Positions 4,067 to 54,546 of a stretch of DNA of 60,000 nt are shown here, one piece after another. The translations under genes and the position numbers were made by a program. The notes beneath the pieces are model-generated. The model ran no database searches. It saw only the letters and a list, made by a program, of their open reading frames with translations, and was not told the DNA's origin. The stretch lies in contig NW_024704742.1 of assembly GCF_018977255.1 (NCBI RefSeq), forward strand, positions 36,396,001 through 36,456,000. Direction: 5' to 3'. Position 1 is the stretch's first letter, and every line of letters starts with the position of its first letter. Source of the stretch: Callorhinchus milii. Taxonomy: Eukaryota.

Positions 4067-4381
<315 letters not shown>

Positions 4382-11269: not shown

Positions 11270-11836
11270 GGTGTGTAACAAAGGTGTGTGTGTGTGTGTG
11301 CATCTCATCCCAGTGTGTGTGTGCACAACTGACCCCCAGTGAGTGTGTATGTGTGTGCAACTCACCCCCAGTGAGTGTGTGTGTGGGTGTGTGCAACTCA
11401 TCCCGATAGTGAGTGTGTATGTGTAATTCACTCCCAATGTGTGTGTGTGTAACTCAAGCCCAGCGAGTGTGTGTGTGTGTGCAACTCATCCCCAGTGTGT
11501 GTGTGTGTGTGTGTGTGTAACACACCCCCAGTGAGTGGTGTGTGTGTGTGTAACATACCCTCAGTGGGTGGTGTGTGTGTAACGCACCCCCAGTAGGTGG
11601 TGTGTGTGTGTGTGTAACGCACCCCCAGTGGGTGGTGTGTGTGTGTGTAATGCACCCGCAGTGGGTGGTGTGTGTGTGTGTAACGCACCCCCAGTGGGTG
11701 GTGTGTGTGTGTGTAACGCACCCCCAGTAGGTGGTGTGTGTGTGTGTGTAACACACCCCCAGTGGGTGGTGTGTGTGTGTGTAATGCACCCGCAGTGGGT
11801 GGTGTGTGTGTGTGTGTAACGCACCCCCAGTGGGTG

Positions 11837-11867
<31 letters not shown>

Positions 11868-11890
11868 GCACCCCCAGTGGGTGGTTTGTG
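11270..11890. repeat. Compound minisatellite: AACGCACCCCCAGTGGGTG core separated by variable (GT)n
   Basis: Direct reading; accounts for the HT/CV-rich spurious ORFs. Confidence 0.95.
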
Positions 11891-12213
11891 TACCCCTGGC
11901 TCAGGAGTGGGTCTGACCTTTACCCATTTTTATTGAGCTCTCAGCATCTCTCCTTGACTATTTCTGTTCAGTCGATTAAAGTGCCATAGTTGCATAATAT
12001 AAATAACTGAAGCAATTCAGGCTTTAGAGATGCCTTAATAATAACTATTAACTGCTGGAGATTTACCTTTCATGTTTACAGTGATACCAAACCTTTTTTT
12101 CCCTTCAATTAAACTGAAAATTGATATCTCAGGACACTCTTGATCTGAAATTAACTATTTGTTGAGTATTTTTATAAATGTACAGTATTTATAAGAAGAA
12201 ATATGGTTATGAC

Positions 12214-29254: not shown

Positions 29255-30469
29255 CTGCAAGAGTTCATTGCACAGAATAAATACATTGATGTCGAATGTA
29301 ATAAATCAAGATAGTACTTGGCCGCATTTTAGTATCTGAACCCATGCAGTGGAAGAATATGTAATACATACTTGACGGTCTACATAATCTGACATATTGA
29401 GTCAGCCCTGATCAAATCAGAAAATAGATGATTCAGACTACCTTGATTATACAGTCATTTAGGCCCATTCTCCAAGACCCAAAGAGTAGTTGTCTCCTCA
29501 TGTCCGATTAAATCTATCGCTAAACTTAGAAATGGCTGATACAAACTGTGCAGCATTCCCAATATAACTCACGCAACTTGCAAACAACAGGAATTAAAAA
29601 ACAGGGTATACATTTCTATATTGGCTTCAAACAAATGCACTTTCCAGATTGTTAGAAAATCTGAATTGCTTGTGCTTAATCTTCCCTTTTCCCACTCTGT
29701 CAGAAATACTTTTTTTTAATGTTATTTTGGTCACTAATTTGATTCCCAATTTTGACCACAGCCTCAGAGAAAGTTACAATCACCCTCTAATGCATGCAGC
29801 TTCACCTGAAATACAAACTAATAACTTGTTTTCCACCCCACCCCCCACCCCGTCCCAAAACAGTTCCTAAAGTTACAGATAGGTCAAAAGGGGTTGCTCT
29901 TGTCTATTTTACTGATTGCTCTATTTATGAAACACAAAACAAGCTATGATTATATCTGCAAATATTGTGTCAATGTATGGAATTATGAGAGAAGCACACA
30001 CATACAGTATGTCATCCTTCGATAGAAATGGTGCATCACTCTGAAGGGGCAACTGTTTAAATTAAGGCTAATAAAATTTAAACAGAATTCTGCTTACAGA
30101 TGAAGCCTGCTAGCATATTATTAAAAAAAATTGCAGAATGCAACATTATGAATAAGGCATGGTAGAAATTTCAAATAAATACCATTTTTAATTGACTTCA
30201 TCTGTGAAAACTGCCATTTCAACTGTATAGTTCAAAATTATCTTGATAAGAATGATGCAGCAATGTACTAAAATATTACTAAAGCCTTTTGATATACAGT
30301 ATAAAAGCTACCAAAAAATTAAAAAAAATATGTAAAAACTATAACCTGATGTGAAAAGCAATGCAAGTTTTTTTAACTGTTAAGAAAAAGGTACAAATTA
30401 CAACTAGGCCAATACTTTCTGGTTTCCATTTAATTTAGAAGGCTTTCAAAAATCTTTTCAAGCACCTAC

Positions 30470-30699
30470 CTTCCAACATGGAGACTGATTAAACAGTGGG
30501 CCAGACAGCCAATGAATTCCTGATCGTGGTTGCCAGGTCCCAGTATGAGATTGCGGTTGACAGTCAAAACCCTCAAGGAATCTAACAGAGCAACTTGCTG
30601 TGGAACAGTCTTATGTGGTCTTGACAGCTGGTAGAGGATGGTTCGATTCAAGCAGTGGTAAATAGGGTCAAGAGACAGCCCTTGGGACCTCCTTTTGGA
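30470..30699 (-). CDS. WDFY3: WDFY3 exon (230 nt) SKRRSQGLSLDPIYHCLNRTILYQLSRPHKTVPQQ...CLISLHVG
   Basis: Overlaps ORF 30466..30651; acceptor TGTCTAG, donor GTAGGT. Confidence 0.95.
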
Positions 30700-35030: not shown

Positions 35031-35348
35031 GTGGAGTCCTGTAGCTCAGTGGTTAGAGCACTCGCTTTGCAAGCGAGAGACCTGAGTTCAATTCCAGGCA
35101 AAGGGCGAAACCTTGGGCAAGTTTCTTTACTCCACACAGAGCCTAATAATAATCCCTCCAAAACCAAAAACAATAATAAATTGGTCATTTTCAATCTACG
35201 ACTGTTTGTGGGACATTGCTGTGCGCAATTGGCTGCCGCGTTCGCCCACAAATATACAGTCAATTCACTTTACAGTGTGTTCTGTGAAGCGCTTTGGGAC
35301 GTTCTCCCGACGTGAAAAGCGCTATATCAAATGCAAGGATTATTATTT
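35031..35348 (+). mobile_element. Young tRNA-derived SINE (tRNA-Ala-like head, L2-type tail), full length
   Basis: Box A TAGCTCAGTGG, box B GAGTTCAATTCC, TGC anticodon-like loop, (TTA)n tail; near-identical to copies at 45368 and 53955. Confidence 0.9.
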
Positions 35349-35369
35349 TTTAAAGAAAACATGTTGCTG

Positions 35370-37276: not shown

Positions 37277-38101
37277 AGGGCAGCACCTGCCCTCTCACAC
37301 CAATGTGCCCCTTGCGCTCCAGAACAAAACCCTCTAGCTAATACTGCGGAACCCAGAGAAGACCTTGGAGAAGATTCAGCCACAGGTCTCCTGACCTGCT
37401 TGCTCAACACAAGGTTACCTGTATCCCCAGATCACTTGGATGTGTGCACTGATCCTCTCTCCCGCTCAGTGCCTTTGATGCCTGCAGCCAAGGGGTCTGC
37501 ACAATTCTCAGAAATTGTGATTGCTTCCTCCTTCGATTTGGTGGTGAACTCAACTATGAAAACATAAACAGCCATGCATATTGTTTAACTTTGTACTTTG
37601 TATAGAATTTGGTCCACAATATCACTATGGAAGTCCAAAGTGCAATTACTGAAATAAAATTCCTCTGACCAAAACATAGGACAACACTAGCTGAGGGATT
37701 ACAATACCTCACTATATTTTGGACACATGCAGATAGCAACAGACTTTAAAATAAAGGCATGCATTATGAAAAACAATATTGTGGGAATTATTACATCACT
37801 TACCATGTTCTGCAGTAGTCTCAGAGGAGACAGCATTGCCGAGTGTATCCCGGTTTGATTGTGCAATGATTTTCTTGAAGGTTTCTGACGCTGAGTACTG
37901 CATTTCTGGTCATTCTACTGTGTTCCAACTTATACCTTGCAGAGCGATTCAGATCATTAATTCTCTTTCAACAGTCAGTGGGATTTGTGTGGCTTTTAGA
38001 GCAACAATATATCTTGTTAGCCCATATTTTACCGTCATCAAATACCGTGGATGGCAAGATCTTGCTGTTCAGATGTTTTATTGTTGTATTGACTATCAAG
38101 T

Positions 38102-38703
38102 ATAATAATAATAATAATCCTTGCATTTGATATAGCGCTTTTCTCGTCGGGAGGACGTCCCAAAGCGCTTCACAGAGTATACTGTAAAGTGAATTGACTG
38201 TATATTTGTGGGCGAACGCGGCAGCCAATTGCGCACAGCAATGTCCCACAAACAGTCATGGATTTAAAATGACCAATTTATTATTGTTTTTGTTTTTTTG
38301 GAGGGATTATTATTAGGCGTGTGGAGTAAGGAGTAAGGAAACTTGCCCAAGGTTTCTTGTGCACTTGTGGAGTCCTGTAGCTCAGTGGTTAGAGCACTCA
38401 CTTTGCAAGCGAGAGACCTGAGTTCAATTCCAGGCAGAGGGCGAAACCTTGGCCAAGTTTCCTTACTCCATGACCAATAATAAATTGGTCATTTTCAATC
38501 TACGACTGTCTGTGGGACATTGCTGTGTGCAATTGGCTGCCGCGTTCGCCCACAAATATACAGTCAATTCACTTTACAGTGTGTTCTGTGAAGCACTTTG
38601 GGACGTCCTCTCGACGTGAAAAGCGTTATATCAAATGCAAGAATTATTATTAATATTATTATTATTAAAGCGAGTGCTCTAACCACTGAGCTACAGGACT
38701 CCT
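38102..38703 (-). mobile_element. Minus-strand SINE split into body/tail (38102-38357) and head (38667-38703) by a nested opposite-strand SINE
   Basis: Head GGAGTCCTGTAGCTCAGTGGTTAGAGCACTCGCTTT at 38703-38667; body resumes at GAAACCTTGGGCAAG near 38356. Confidence 0.8.
38367..38666 (+). mobile_element. Young tRNA-derived SINE (small internal deletion) nested in an opposite-strand copy
   Basis: Full head GTGGAGTCCTGTAGCTCAG, body and ATT-repeat tail. Confidence 0.88.
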
Positions 38704-38792
38704 CAATGTGTGAGAGAGAGAGAGAAAGAGAGAGAGGTAGATAGATACGTTTCCGAATCTGGCTGGGAGTGGACAAGGCTCCCATTTTGTGC

Positions 38793-39371
38793 TCAGACTG
38801 AACTCTCATCCGGTTTCTCCCCCAACTGAGTTTGTTTCCTCTTCTCCAGCTTCCTGCTCAGCTCTTCAGTGAAGGAGTGGTAATGGGGGGACGTGGACTC
38901 CATCTCGCTGGCCTGCCTCAGGAGCACGTAGCTGTTGCCGTTCATCTTCCTCGGTACGTGGGGAAGTCCAGGGAGCCCGTTGGGGGTGTCAACCAGTTTG
39001 GGGGGCAGTGGGGGAGTGGGCGGGGGAGGGGGCAGCTCCAAGTCGGCAGTCCTGTTGTTGTTGTGGAGTGAGTTGGTGCTGGGGGCCTGGCCGGGGATGA
39101 TCTTCAGGAAGCCCACCTGGTGGTCCTCTTCGTCAGACCCTTCCTCGCTCCTGGGCCCACAACTCCCGGATAGGTTCTGCAGCTCGATGTGGGACGGACG
39201 GCACAGTTGCACCTGGTACTTGCCTCTCTTGGACGGGGAGCAGAACAGGTAGATAGCAAGGATGGATGTTACTACGGCAACCGACCCCAGGAAGACGATG
39301 ATGGTCAGGTACAGGAACTCTCTGCCTGAGGAGATCTGAGCCAGGTGTGACGGAGGGGCCTCAGGCAACAT
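38793..39371 (-). pseudogene. SEMA4G: Intronic, 5'-truncated semaphorin-4G fragment (juxtamembrane, TM helix and full cytoplasmic tail); reading frame intact
   Basis: 192-codon ORF with a TM segment (FLYLTIIVFLGSVAVVTSILAIYLFC), LKIIPG, polyproline, RKMNGNSYVLLRQ, SFTEELSRKLEKRKQTQL and a C-terminal PDZ motif DESSV*, matching the SEMA4G tail. No sema/PSI/Ig exons seen in the window. Visibly GC-rich against the AT-rich intron. Confidence 0.85.
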
Positions 39372-40612
39372 ATATCAGGTTCCATTACGCTCAGATCTAT
39401 CCAGTTGCTTTGATCGATTCATACGTTTAGACTTTCTCTTCGGTGGAGTGTTCACGGGTGTCAACCGTTTGCACTTCTTTACTGTATATTGATGTGGAAA
39501 AATGTCCAAAAGCTTCACTCAATCTCCAAAAATCCACATCTCTGCAGCCTGCATTCTGTCCCTCAACAGCCTTCAAAAAAAACCTGAGCAGACAATTTTA
39601 AGATTTTGTCTTGCCCTTTAAATCTCTTCACCGTCTCCCCTCTCTCAGACAGAACTATGTTGAAAATCATCAAGTTATGCTGTAACTCAAATTAATCTCA
39701 ATGAAGCTGCCTATTTTCATGACTCCAGTACTATTTTGGCCCTGGTACAGTCCTGAATCCTATGGTGTATGGAGGATGTTGAGAATGTAAAGTAGCATGA
39801 AATACACAGAAAGAGGTCATTGTAATATGTACCGTGGAAATAAAAACAGCTGATTTACAAGGTATCCTTTAATAAAAGTCAGAGAAAGATGTTTTTGATG
39901 GCTCAGTGAGCTGAGCTACATTAGCTAAAATACCATTAGTGTTATAACAAAGTGCAATGGCCAGGCCTTCAATGCACACAAGGCCAATGCACACATTTGC
40001 TTCCTGCGTGTTGGTCGATTCCTGCACAAAGAGAAAAATGACCGTGTTTCAGGTCATCAGGTATTGGCCAGGAAACCAGCTGGCCTCACATGTATGGACT
40101 GAAACTGCCTATTCCTCCTTGTTAAAGCACAGGTTAGGGTTTCATGGGTTCCATTCACTGTTTTATAATGGGCTTTTCTGTATAGTCAAGGGAAATGAAA
40201 ATCTCCCATACAAGCAGCAAAGTAGGCAGTGACATTGGTGATGACTTTAATGACCTCGAAGCCAGACTTTTTTCTTGTGAAGTCGGTCCTGTTACAGGAC
40301 AGGAAATGCCAGGAAACTAGCTGACCTCACATTTCTGCACTACCACCAGCGATTTCTATAACCAGCTATATTTGCAATCACATTGTAACTAAATTTGCAT
40401 TTTAAAGAAGCTCATAACAGGTCTGTAATGTAAAAAGAAACAGGGAATATGGGACAAACAAAATTTACAGCGGAAAAAAAACCCCAAACACTTCAAACAA
40501 TGTCAAATGAAAGGTTTAGGACCAATTAGTTATTAAAAACAATAAGTGTTTTTTTTAAGAGAAATTATTGTCCCTAAATCCAGGGGAAAGCAAGAGATCA
40601 GTTGACACTACA

Positions 40613-41529: not shown

Positions 41530-41884
41530 ATAATAAATAATAATCCTTGCACTTGATATAGCGCCTGATCACGTCTTTGAGACGTCTCAAAGCGCTTCAC
41601 AGAATATATTGTAAAGTGAATTGACTGTATATTTTGTGGGAGAAAGCGGCAGTCAATTGTGCACAGCAGTGTCCCACAAACAGCTGGGTATTGAAGTGAC
41701 CAATTTATTATTATTATTTTTTTGAAGGAATTATTGCCCCTAAAAAAGCAATCTGCCAATCGACTAACAACCGGGTTCCTACTTACCACTAGATAAACAA
41801 GAGGCGTTTGGAGTAAGGAAACTTACTCAACATTTTGCCCTGCTGGGAATTGAGCCCAGGTCTCTGGCTTGTGAGGCGAGTCCT
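41530..41884 (-). mobile_element. Related older SINE subfamily; its tRNA head continues at 43788-43816 beyond the L2 insertion
   Basis: Tail and body similar to the young SINE; head split at GCGAGTCCT / GTCCTCTAACCACTGAGCTACAGGACTCC. Confidence 0.8.
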
Positions 41885-43787
41885 TCTACTCCAGGACAAT
41901 CCTGGAGGCGAAGAACAACCCCAGGCTTCTGTTCTCTACCACATCCCGACTCCTCCGTCCCCCCCGCAGGTCATCTCCTCCAACCTTCACTGCGAGGAGA
42001 TGCTGGATTTCCTTGAATCCAAAATCAAGGGAATCCGCACCGCGGTAACTGCCCCTCCCAACTTCCACCCAGCCCCCACCCTTCCCTCCCACACTCCGAC
42101 TCCTACCCATCCTCCCCTACACACCTTTGAACCCGTTTCCCCACCCTCTGTCACCAAACTCATTCTGTCCTTGAAATCCACCACCTGCTCCCTGGATCCC
42201 ATCCCCACTCCACATCTCCCAGCGCCACCTCCTTGCCCCACTTCTCACAGACACCATTAACCTGTCCCTCTCCTCTGGCTCTGTTCCCATTCCCCTCAAA
42301 ACTGCCACCATCACTCCCATACTGAAAAAACCCTCCCTTGATGCATCGCAGCTATCAAGCTACCGGCCCATCTCCAACCTCCCCTTCCTGTCCAAGGTTC
42401 TCGAAAGAGTTGTCGCCTCCCAGCTGCGCTCTTTCCTTTCCACCCACTCACTTTTGGAACTCCTCCAGTCGGGTTTCCGTGCTGCCCATAGCACAGAAAC
42501 TGCCCTGGTCAAGGTCACCAATGACATCTTGACCATCTGGAACCAGGGCTCCCTTTGCCTCCTCCTCGACCTATCGGCCGCATTCGATACGGTCGACCAC
42601 TCTATCCTCCTCCACCGCTTGTCCTCCCACCTCAACCTTCAAGGCCCTGTCCTTGAGTGGTTTAGTCCTACCTCTGCCACCGTCTTCACTTTGTCTCTGC
42701 AAACGGCTTTTCCTCCAGCCCCCGCACTGTCTCGTGCGGTGTCCCTCAGGGCTCTGTCCTCGGTCCCCTCCTATGTGCTCCCTCTTGGTGACATCATCCG
42801 CAGACATGGGGTTAATTTCCACATGTATGCGGATGACACCCAACTCTACGTTTCCTCTTCTACCCTCAAATCCACGACCACCGATGTCCTGACAGCTGCC
42901 TGTCCGACATCGAGTCCTGGACGAGAAACAACTTTCTTCACCTCAACGTGCACAAAACTGAGGCCCTCCTGATTGGCTCACGTCAGCACCTCCGCACCTC
43001 AGGCGCTGACACCATCAGCATCCAAGGCTGCACTCTCCACCTCTCAAAGCAGTCAGGAACCTCGAGGTTCTGTTCGACCCTGAGCTGTCCTTTCTTCCTC
43101 ATATCCGCACCACAAATGGCACTACATTCCATCACCTCCGAAACATCGCCAGACTGCGGCACTACCTCACCCCTCACGCTGCTGAAACTCTGGTCCACGC
43201 CTTTATCACCTCAAGGCTGTACTATGGGAACTCTCTCCTCGCCGGCCTTCCCGGCACCTCCCTCCACAAGCTGCAGGTCATTCAGAACTCTGCAGCTCGT
43301 GTACTGTCCCGCACCAGGCTTCGGGACCACATCACTCCCACCCTCGCTCGCCTCCACTGGCTCCCCATCCCCCAGAGGATCGAATTCAAGATCCTCATCC
43401 TCACCTACAAGGCCATTCATGGCCTCGCTCCCTCCTACCTCTCCGACCTACTATCCCCCAACTTACCTGCCTGTACCCTCAGTTCCTCTGGCTCCGGTCT
43501 GCTCCACACCCTCCGCCCTAACATCGGTGGCCGGGCTTTCAGCCTCTCAGCCCCTTCGCCACCTCCTCCCTTTCCTCCTTCAAGTCCGGTCTCAAGACCT
43601 TTCTCTTCAGCCTTTCCTTCAGCTCTCCTCTCGACTCTCTACCCCCTCCTCGCTCCCTTCCTTCCCTCCCCTCACCCTGACCATTTCCCCTCTGCTCGGG
43701 TCCCGACCTAACTGTGCAGCGCCCTGGTACGTTCTCCCGAAGTGAAAGGCTCTCTTTAAATGCAATCTTGTTATTGTTGTTGTTGTT
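41885..43787 (+). mobile_element. L2-clade LINE, 5'-truncated (~1.9 kb), frameshifted RT region plus 3' tail
   Basis: RT motifs QSGFRAAHSTETALVKVTNDIL, LLLDLSAAFDTVDH, GVPQGSVLGP and MYADDTQLY spread over several frames; (TTG)n tail; flanking GTCCT direct repeat. Confidence 0.92.
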
Positions 43788-45367
43788 GTCCTCTAACCAC
43801 TGAGCTACAGGACTCCAGGACTAATTCTGTCAGATATGAGAAAATTAGCAAGTGCTTTATAAATAATGCAGCAAAATCTGTAGATACACTTTTTGAAAAA
43901 TGCCCAACCAGAGAGCTTGGCAGCCACAACAAACCGGAGTTTTCTTTTAGCAAAGTTGCGAAGCATGAGAGTTGCCAGTTGATTTGTGTGTTCTTCCAAC
44001 TTGAAATCAACTTTCAAATTTTGCATCAGGAGTCAAAAAAAAGATGGTAAGCATACATAAGTTAAGAATAACAAAAAGGAAAGAATTTGTATATTTATAG
44101 CACCTTTTCACTTCAAAACATCTTAAGGCATTTCAAAGGATTACTCTTATAATTAATGTCAAGAGTCGTGACTGCCTGCTTTTGTCGTTTGTGTCAGTAA
44201 TAGATTTTAGAATAAAATGCTGTAAGTGATGACACTGATTTATTCACAAGCAAAGCAGCATAGCACAAACCCATCAAGACAAAAGTGGGACTATTGTCCC
44301 ACTTGAGCTGACTGCAGTGCAAGATAAGACAACATAACCAAACCTATTTTTGCTAGGTTCACAATTTCTAGAAAGTAAATGGTACTGACATTCACTGTAG
44401 GAATAGCAGCAGAAATGTTCAATTTCTGTTACTGGCCATTAATTGTACTAATGACTGCAGAATCTGTACAAAATGCAAAACTGCATCTACAATATTATTA
44501 CCAAACTCAGGGTATTAAAACCAGCAACACAAACCCACAGATCACTTGGAATGTCTTAGGCCAGATTCCAAACTCAAGTAGAAGAAATGTGCAGCAAAAC
44601 GGCTTGCAATGAGAGGCAACACACATGATTAAACACGTAAATGCTGAAAGAACATTGCAAAAACTCTACTGCATTGCGAAGCCAGCAAATGTCAGCGCTG
44701 ATAGCCATTATATAAGGGTCTATGAATAATTTTTTGAAAAAAATACAGGACAATAAAACAATAGTGTCAGTGATTGACAGAATATCATGTTTGCAGAATA
44801 ACTAGGTACATTACTTATAGATAGAATCTCTCATTCTAGAAAAGTTCAACCTCCACACACCATTAGAACTGGAACTGGATGTTTGAATAATTGAGTAAAC
44901 AATGCTTTTAAATCCAGCTGTCACGTAAGCCTCTTTAAAATCCCAGAGCTGGTTATTAAGGATGGACTCTACTTGGTTGGGCAACACAGAAAATGTTAAA
45001 AGAGCTTTACAATTCTTTGCAAGAGTTTTGCTAAGATTACAATCAAACAAAGCAGAAACCATAAAATAGTTGAAAATGTACTGAGAAACATTGTTTGTTG
45101 ACGACCCACCTCACAGACAATATTCAATAGCAAAATAAGGTGGGGGAAGTAGTACCTCAACACAAGTGAATATTTTGGATAAATACAATAATGCAAGAAG
45201 GCAGATCGGTTGAGTGTAGCCAAGTGCTGAAGTTGCCACATTATCAATTTCGGAACACATTAGCAATTAGGAACTCCAGAATAAAACACCTTCACACATA
45301 CCTACACTCTGCACTCTTGGCTGTCAGTTGAATACAATAAATATTTCCCCCAAAGTTTCCCCTTTTT

Positions 45368-45685
45368 ATAATAATAATAATCCTTGCATTTGATATAGCG
45401 CTTTTCACGTCGGGAGGACGTCCCAAAGCGCTTCCCAGAACACACTGTAAAGTGAATTGACTGTATATTTATGGGCGAACGCGGCAGCCAATTGCGCACA
45501 GCAATGTCCCACAAACAGTCGTAGATTGAAAATGACCAATTTATTATTGTTTTTTTGTTTTGGAGGGATTATTATTAGGTGTGTGGAGTAAGGAAACTTG
45601 CCCAAGGTTTTGCCCTGCCTGGAATTGAACTCAGGTCTCTCACTTGCAAAGCGAGTGCTCTAACCACTGAGCTACAGGACTCCAC
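45368..45685 (-). mobile_element. Young tRNA-derived SINE, full length
   Basis: Reverse complement of the 35031 and 53955 copies. Confidence 0.9.
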
Positions 45686-45910: not shown

Positions 45911-46071
45911 CTGTCCTATCAGCTGGACAATAAATTCGACCACCATCTTGGACTCCTTGCTAAACATCCCCTGCCAAAGCTTATCCACAACGCGCTGAGT
46001 AAAGTAAAATACATTGTTCACCAGAATATTGTAACTTCCTCCACTGGTGATGGGTAAGGTTGCATCTTCAC
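45911..46071 (-). CDS. WDFY3: WDFY3 exon (161 nt) GEDATLPITSGGSYNILVNNVFYFTQRVVDKLWQGMFSKESK...QLIGQ
   Basis: Acceptor GTTTCAG, donor GTAAGA; ends in phase 0 before the 15.2-kb intron. Confidence 0.95.
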
Positions 46072-53954: not shown

Positions 53955-54275
53955 GTGGAGTCCTGTAGCTCAGTGGTTAGAGCATTCACTTTGCAAGCGA
54001 GAAACCTGAGTTCAATTCCAGGCAGGGCGAAACCTTGGGCAAGTTTCCTTACTCCACACAGAGCCTAATAATAATCCCTCCAAAACCAAAAACAATAATA
54101 AATTGGTCATTTTCAATCTACGACTGTTTGTGGGACATTGCTGTGCGCAATTGGCTGCCGCGTTCGCCCACAAATATACAGTCAATTCACTTTACAGTGT
54201 GTTCTGTGAAGCGCTTTGGGATGTCCTCCCGATGTGAAAAGCGCTATAACAAATGCAAGGATTATTATTATTATT
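53955..54275 (+). mobile_element. Young tRNA-derived SINE, full length
   Basis: Same head, body and (TTA)n tail as the 35031 copy. Confidence 0.9.
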
Positions 54276-54546
54276 AATATGCGTTTCCCATTCCTCCCAG
54301 CTGCTTTGTAACAATAACATCATCCTTAGCCTAATTCCTTTTTAAAAAACAAATCATGTTCACAGATAATTACAGATCCTTCCCATTCCATTCTTTTCAT
54401 CGGGCAGATTGGAATGGGAGTACGTTTTATGGAGAACCTGTTGTATAGTTGGAACAATTTCACGGTATCTGCAGCTTACGACTGTGTCCTGAATTTACTA
54501 AAATGAACACTCAAGACAATCTCGGTTTTATATAGATATTGTTTAC

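Follow-up and report, generated by a model that had tools for sequence, protein, structure and literature searches.

A long open reading frame that resembles the end of one gene and lies within an intron of another raises the question of whether it is an exon, a small gene or a dead fragment. Such a frame is present on the minus strand of the stretch of Callorhinchus milii DNA analysed here (60,000 nucleotides, referred to below as the window), and we ask what it is, where it came from and whether it is used.

An open SEMA4G tail frame in an intron of a WDFY3-like gene

From stop to stop the frame occupies 38793..39374 on the minus strand (193 aa, stop included); counted from the ATG at 39369-39371 it comprises 192 codons, a polyproline tract included, and closes with DESSV and the stop. 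A TGA is found at 39375-39377, one codon 5′ of the ATG. Table 1 gives the positions of the features discussed throughout. The GC content of the ORF is 59.7%, compared to 43.4% across the intron and 40.2% across the window. The best protein match of the frame was the semaphorin-4G of Callorhinchus milii itself (P0001; 91% identity, 98% coverage, E = 2.1e-104), and the next matches were SEMA4G proteins of sharks and rays (51-62% identity), with 366 proteins at E <= 0.001 among the 2453 candidates of 339-2000 aa searched for longer relatives of the frame. The transmembrane (TM) segment of the frame aligns with the hydrophobic segment of SEMA4G orthologues. A Pfam search of the ORF returned no family, and tblastn of P0001 and of the basking-shark SEMA4G (P0004) against the whole 60-kb window matched the tail only, with no Sema, PSI or Ig exon. 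As for the terminal DESSV, a passage of PMC4586933 states a PDZ-binding motif for Sema4B, Sema4C, Sema4F and Sema4G and, citing Burkhardt et al. 2005, describes the binding of such tails by PSD-95 family proteins.

Table 1. Features of the frame, the copied block, the neighbouring repeats and the flanking host exons, in window coordinates.
Feature	Position	Strand	Basis or remark
Open frame, 192 codons + stop: stalk, TM helix, SEMA4G cytoplasmic tail, DESSV end	38793..39371	minus	
Predicted transmembrane helix, FLYLTIIVFLGSVAVVTSILAIYLFC	39240..39317	minus	strongly hydrophobic stretch of 26 residues; Kyte-Doolittle 19-residue maximum 2.59
LPPPPPTPPLPP	39000-39035	minus	in frame
RKMNGNSYVLLRQ	38913-38951	minus	in frame
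SFTEELSRKLEKRK	38835-38876	minus	in frame
C-terminal DESSV, PDZ-binding-type motif (putative)	38796..38810	minus	16/16 aligned tails (window + 15 others)
ATG in unique intron flank	39369..39371	minus	3 nt outside homology block (junction alignment)
Homology block, 700-bp partial copy of SEMA4G 3′ end	38667..39366	minus	blastn of window versus C104: 671/700 identities, 6 gap positions
Copied 3′UTR, 86 bp, (GA)n run	38707..38792	minus	follows stop
Initial 40 nt of the SINE found 3′ of SEMA4G on C104	38667..38706	minus	3′ end of block
Full SINE, (ATT)n tail abutting block	38365..38666	plus	opposite orientation to block
5′-truncated SINE body	38099..38356	minus	intron resident, outside copied block
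Upstream WDFY3-like exon	45911..46071	minus	tblastn of P0130 residues 590-648; donor, then phase-0 intron
Downstream WDFY3-like exon	30469..30699	minus	tblastn of P0130 residues 648-722

The gene that surrounds the frame also lies on the minus strand. Pfam Beach was detected in ORFs at 820-1155 (E = 1.4e-26) and 4067-4381 (E = 1e-19), and 25 exon matches follow one another in the order of P0130, a hagfish protein named WDFY3. Judged by its BEACH domain and its closest named relative, the host is a WDFY3-like (Alfy) gene, the FYVE end of which lies outside the window. The intron in question (45910-30700) is 15,211 bp long and of phase 0, and the SEMA4G fragment is in sense orientation relative to the host gene. 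Another intron of the host holds an imperfect tandem repeat (11431-11929, minus strand), which reads as HTHTH.../PPTGGALHTHT in all three minus-strand frames.

The preliminary description of this DNA had been made from its letters, and most of what it reported for the frame is borne out by these results. The 192-codon open frame with its TM helix, polyproline tract and DESSV end is present as described, and the GC-rich island (59.7% in the ORF) does lie on the WDFY3 sense strand in a 15-kb intron (15,211 bp). The absence of ectodomain exons from the window agrees with the tblastn searches of two SEMA4G proteins, which matched the tail alone. In addition, the reading of the frame as a SEMA4G tail with a PDZ-binding motif is upheld by the match to P0001 (E = 2.1e-104) and by the -SSV end; a match of the protein to SEMA4G, which had been set beforehand as a test of that reading, was obtained at 91% identity to P0001.

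The parent locus and the limits of the copied block

In the 991-Mb genome, a DNA search found the whole 700 bp of the block at two places among the best 40 of 451 candidates, the window and C104:141111-141804; the remaining 38 of these 40 scored candidates match query positions 1-72, the SINE head, only. A protein search of the same assembly likewise recovered exactly one other copy, again at C104:141111-141804. The contig C104 (157,722 bp) bears SEMA4G exons that match residues 376-852 of the basking-shark protein (P0004) and residues 366-830 of the species' own 830-aa SEMA4G (P0285, XP_007910429.1), the latter at 89-98% identity. The last exon of this parent is a single open stretch over P0001 residues 290-566 and encodes the Ig domain, the stalk, the TM helix and the tail; on P0285, Pfam places Sema at residues 294-476, PSI at 497-536 and Ig at 554-623.

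The block shares 96% nucleotide and 91% protein identity with C104 and contains part of the last exon, the 3′UTR and 40 nt from the head of a SINE. When the window locus was compared with the parent locus by blastn, the only matches outside the block were those of one SINE to another. The copy corresponds to residues 642-830 of P0285 and begins 19 residues past the Ig domain (which ends at 623), at P0001 residue 379, in the middle of the last exon of the parent; from this alignment, the 5′ end of the block is a truncation inside an exon rather than an exon boundary. Homology begins at GCCTGAGG, from 39366 downward, and the codons that precede it (TAT ATG TTG) are unlike those of the parent. 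The flank at 39367-40000 is single-copy in the genome, and since the ATG lies in this flank, outside the homology block, its presence at the start of the frame is fortuitous. The non-coding part of the block (38667-38792, 126 bases) has one difference from the parent, at 38757. At its 3′ end, at 38667, the block abuts the (ATT)n tail of a full SINE of opposite orientation.

These boundaries separate what the preliminary description had right about the origin of the frame from what it had wrong. Its central proposal, a relocated fragment of the SEMA4G gene, stands, as the block is 96% identical to the parent on C104. It had also stated that SEMA4G is not normally nested in WDFY3, and the Sema-, PSI- and Ig-coding exons are indeed on C104; the genome search that it proposed for the parent locus and copy number led to that contig and to two copies of the 700-bp block. 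Two details have to be given up: the ATG with which the frame was said to begin is flank sequence and not part of the fragment, and the fragment is no exon-like "module", as the block starts midway through a parent exon that also encodes the Ig domain.

Substitutions, selection and age

Copy and parent differ at 29 alignment columns, of which 28 are coding and one falls in the 126 non-coding bases; coding constraint would have produced the reverse distribution. Ten of the substitutions are in a CpG context. Over 188 aligned codons, the Nei-Gojobori comparison of copy with parent gave sd = 5, nd = 17, dS = 0.037 and dN = 0.041, a ratio of 1.10, and with counts as small as these (22 substitutions) it is possible that weak purifying selection is compatible with the data. 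Fourteen SEMA4G tails from sharks, rays, lungfish, gar and bowfin served as outgroups. The copy is derived at three positions, P>T in the polyproline run, L>P in LPHVLRK and H>Q in EKRKH, and at each of them the parental residue is present in 14/14 outgroups. The parent, in turn, is derived at V>L in NSYVLL (V in 13/14 outgroups) and in the cluster EMEST>KGQA-. Because the copy keeps QASEMESTSPHYHS and NSYVLLRQ and the parent has changed both, decay of the copy accounts for only part of the divergence.

The same changes can be read in the parent locus (L002, G000:C104:139740-143303, coding part 1501-2331), where QASKGQA-SPHYHS stands against the QASEMESTSPHYHS found in sharks and in the window (38892-38927), and NSYLLL stands against the NSYVLL of sharks and of the copy, which reads NSYVLLRQ. 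Compared to both the window copy and another organism (organism B, run X11), the parent has two 3-nt deletions.

As a nucleotide outgroup, organism B offers a further point of comparison. Among the matches listed, it agrees with the parent at 38953, 39142, 39173 and 39327, three of these four being nonsynonymous, and with the window at 38799, the cluster 38892-38906, 39069, 39245, 39282 and both 3-nt indels. Since only the parent is unlike organism B at the two in-frame indels, these fell on the lineage of the parent, which is the one where selection keeps the frame, and the copy took no indel. Two letters of the window, the T at 39133 and the T at 39190, are both nonsynonymous and private to the assembly; the parental C and A stand at these sites in the X1 and X4 contigs that carry the copy. 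The two letters are either polymorphic in the copy or errors of the consensus. In its EMEST and NSYV residues, the copy preserves a SEMA4G tail older than that of the functional gene, which has since changed.

An open frame is not in itself a sign of constraint at this level of divergence. In simulations of random substitutions, the probability that no stop arises was 0.83, 0.72, 0.61 and 0.52 after 6, 11, 17 and 22 substitutions, respectively, and with values of 0.72-0.52 at 11-22 hits an open frame is to be expected of a young neutral copy. Taken with the changes at conserved sites and a dN/dS that is not well below 1, the pattern of substitution is best described as neutral-like. Where the preliminary description held the fragment to be either young or under selection, its youth is confirmed (96% identity, dS 0.037) and selection is not (dN/dS 1.10, invariant sites replaced): the dN/dS comparison with the parent that it called for came out against a selected copy, and two more nonsynonymous letters are found in the assembly only.

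Reality and possible use of the insertion

A contig of run X1 (39297-39476, 0 differences) bridges the 5′ junction into the single-copy flank, and so does a contig of run X4 (39045-39415); a second X4 contig (38784-38953) is an exact match to the copy across the cluster at 38892-38906 that separates copy from parent. At its 5′ junction, the insertion is real DNA and not a misassembly, while the 3′ junction lies within SINE sequence. In organism B, a contig of depth 31.4 aligns from approximately 38778 to 39366 and ends at the edge of the block, and the flank at 39378-40587 is also covered.

Traces of a product were sought among proteins and contigs. The ORF is absent, by exact look-up, from a collection of 15 billion proteins; no match above 47% identity was found among proteins of 105-336 aa, and none above 91% among those of 339-2000 aa. 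Neither AATAAA nor ATTAAA occurs within the 445 nt past the stop. Among the contigs, none of them on record as RNA, no junction contig for a spliced form of the fragment was seen. The contigs of X8 (guessed RNA) cover 38752-39366 only, with no cover of the flank, and come from the transcript of the parent, since they carry the parent's letters. Those of X4 (guessed RNA, may be DNA) have a depth of 3-6 over the fragment and of 6.5-11.6 over the adjacent unique intron. The start of the block reads ...CCTGAG followed by GCC, which puts an AG (39364-39365) where an in-frame acceptor would sit; this candidate was judged by eye, and the tract before the AG is purine-rich.

Three readings of the locus have to be weighed. 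One is an assembly artefact: a SEMA4G read or contig could have been mis-patched into the WDFY3 intron at SINE repeats. One boundary of the block within a SINE, contig bridging seen at the 5′ junction only and the position of the parent on a small unplaced contig (157,722 bp) would all suit such an event. However, copy and parent differ at 29 alignment columns and are therefore separate sequences, and contigs from two further runs, belonging to two studies, both bridge the 5′ junction to single-copy flank and carry letters specific to the copy, so that we regard an artefact as exceedingly improbable. The fragment might instead be in use. The WDFY3-like gene could join its donor at 45911 to the AG and so gain the fragment as an alternative last exon, or a stand-alone tail could be translated from the ATG at 39371. 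Its sense orientation, the phase-0 intron and the frame-keeping AG at the start of the block are what an exon would need, and the open frame, the strong TM segment, the intact DESSV end and the retained ancestral EMEST and NSYV residues also speak for use. On the other side are the dN/dS of 1.10, with replacements at sites invariant in 14/14 outgroups, and the two further nonsynonymous letters that differ between individuals. Additionally, the ATG is flank sequence and no signal peptide is present, the stretch ahead of the AG is purine-rich, the 445 nt after the stop hold no AATAAA or ATTAAA, no matching protein is on record, and the depth of X4 over the fragment (3-6) is not above that of the unique intron beside it (6.5-11.6). 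Use in any form is very unlikely on these grounds. Its more specific form, past or ongoing capture as an alternative last exon in which the phase-0 donor at 45911 is joined to the AG at the block start and adds a TM helix and PDZ-binding tail, is less likely still. If the exon route were true, an Alfy-like protein would result that is shortened at its C-terminus, anchored in the membrane and confined to this lineage, with a TM helix and the SEMA4G PDZ-binding tail at its end; if the stand-alone route were true, the product would be a small membrane-anchored tail competing for PDZ or SH3 partners. The latter idea, a decoy tail, came from the preliminary description and finds no support: the collections searched hold no matching protein, the 445 nt past the stop hold neither AATAAA nor ATTAAA, and no contig shows the fragment spliced.

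We consider it likely that the fragment is a young and non-functional duplicate of part of the SEMA4G gene of this species, taken from the 3′ end, and that it drifts neutrally in an intron of the WDFY3-like gene. Inserted in the sense direction amid the SINE and LINE copies of this 15.2-kb intron, it has no promoter, signal peptide or ectodomain of its own and would have drifted neutrally ever since. Only the youth of the copy and the lack of any indel in it would have kept its frame open. Most likely, the fragment does nothing and is transcribed only within the WDFY3 intron and removed with it.

Repeats around the block and way of origin

The block is surrounded by members of one SINE family with a tRNA-like head and an (ATT)n tail, many copies of which were observed, including those at 35107-35350, 38099-38666, 45368-45610 and 54029-54276. 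At 38099-38666, two SINE copies stand head to head, 8 nt apart, one of them without its first 78 nt. The head of the plus-strand SINE matches the Rfam tRNA family RF00005 at 38375-38437 (36.3 bits versus a gathering score of 29), and ARAGORN reported no tRNA at 37900-38900. A LINE-like element is also present in the same intron (41817-43742, plus strand), with an ORF at 42175-42969 that matches RVT_1 (E = 4.1e-17); the GC content at 42001-44000 is 54-56%. It was considered whether the minus-strand SINE body at 38099-38356 could be the rest of the parent's SINE, split from the block by a younger SINE. This reading was rejected on finding only 90.7% identity to the parent's SINE, eleven other copies that are closer to 38099-38356 (the best at 94%) and a diagnostic 12-nt stretch that differs from that of the parent.

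The copy may have arisen through DNA repair or through retroposition. Repair of a break through SINE homology, with the SEMA4G locus as the source, has in our estimate a roughly even chance, that of retroposition being somewhat lower, and what is left falls to something else. By the DNA route, a break in or beside a resident SINE of the intron would have been repaired by copying the SEMA4G locus through SINE homology; synthesis would have proceeded for 660 bp into the 3′UTR and exon, and the end would then have been rejoined. Such a course would explain why one boundary falls within a SINE that shares its orientation with the resident SINE body, and also why neither a poly(A) tract nor a clear target-site duplication is seen. 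The alternative, a 5′-truncated retrocopy of a SEMA4G transcript with a SINE in its 3′UTR, is possible but doubtful. A block made up entirely of sequence that a transcript of the parent should contain would be natural for it, as would the 5′ truncation inside an exon and the LINE with an RVT_1 ORF in the same intron, and an RNA-like X8 contig with the parent's letters spans the coding part up to the SINE edge. However, no poly(A) is present, and after 40 nt of SINE head the block gives way to the (ATT)n tail of the opposite SINE. Furthermore, no convincing target-site duplication was recognised (by eye, a weak 7-nt similarity that is not adjacent to the ends of the block), the adjacent SINE body on the minus strand is a different SINE from that of the parent, and the block, lying within one parent exon, carries no signal of intron loss that could be read. 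Weighing these points, we lean slightly towards the DNA route.

Comparison with known gene fragments

Partial duplicated pseudogenes and gene fragments within introns commonly arise from repeat-mediated repair or retroposition, and the copy described here is a new instance of this known class, the partial duplicated pseudogene in an intron. Like other members of the class it is truncated, has no promoter, is bounded by a repeat, shows a neutral-like pattern and is surrounded by SINEs and LINEs; unlike them, it has a frame that is open and, by accident, compatible in phase with its host, which is not unusual at approximately 4% divergence. With processed retropseudogenes it shares the 5′ truncation and the restriction to transcribed content, but it lacks poly(A) and shows no clear target-site duplication, and its 3′ end lies inside a SINE head. 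Compared to SEMA4G itself (C104, P0285), the copy retains the stalk, the TM helix, the polyproline tract, RKMNGNSY, SFTEELSRKLEKRK and DESSV, and the 3′UTR is included. It differs in having no Sema, PSI or Ig domain and none of the upstream exons, in starting in the middle of an exon, in carrying replacements at invariant positions of the tail and in sitting in the intron of another gene. The fragment has the TM and tail homology and the -SSV end of a class-4 semaphorin tail and lacks the features that define semaphorins (Sema, PSI and Ig).

The biological weight of the copy is small, as it adds another gene fragment spread by repeat-associated repair or retroposition. It does counsel caution in annotation: an intronic frame that is open, GC-rich and bears homology to a known protein can pass for an exon or a small gene. 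The copy also has minor value as a dated marker, having kept the older state of the SEMA4G tail (EMEST, NSYV). Wider interest would follow only if frame-compatible exon capture were true, in which case domain shuffling would have been caught early.

Two further observations concern class-4 semaphorins elsewhere in the assembly. Residues 1-35 of P0285 are found on C1007:10688-10792 and residues 366-830 on C104, and residues 36-365 were not found at high identity among the best candidates scored; the SEMA4G gene seems to be split or partly missing in the assembly. In addition, the last exon of a paralogous class-4 semaphorin was identified at G000:C28:2831661-2832506 (minus strand). This exon has a 361-aa open frame that is 32% identical to SEMA4G residues 555-830 and, like the SEMA4G parent, carries Ig, TM and tail in a single exon.
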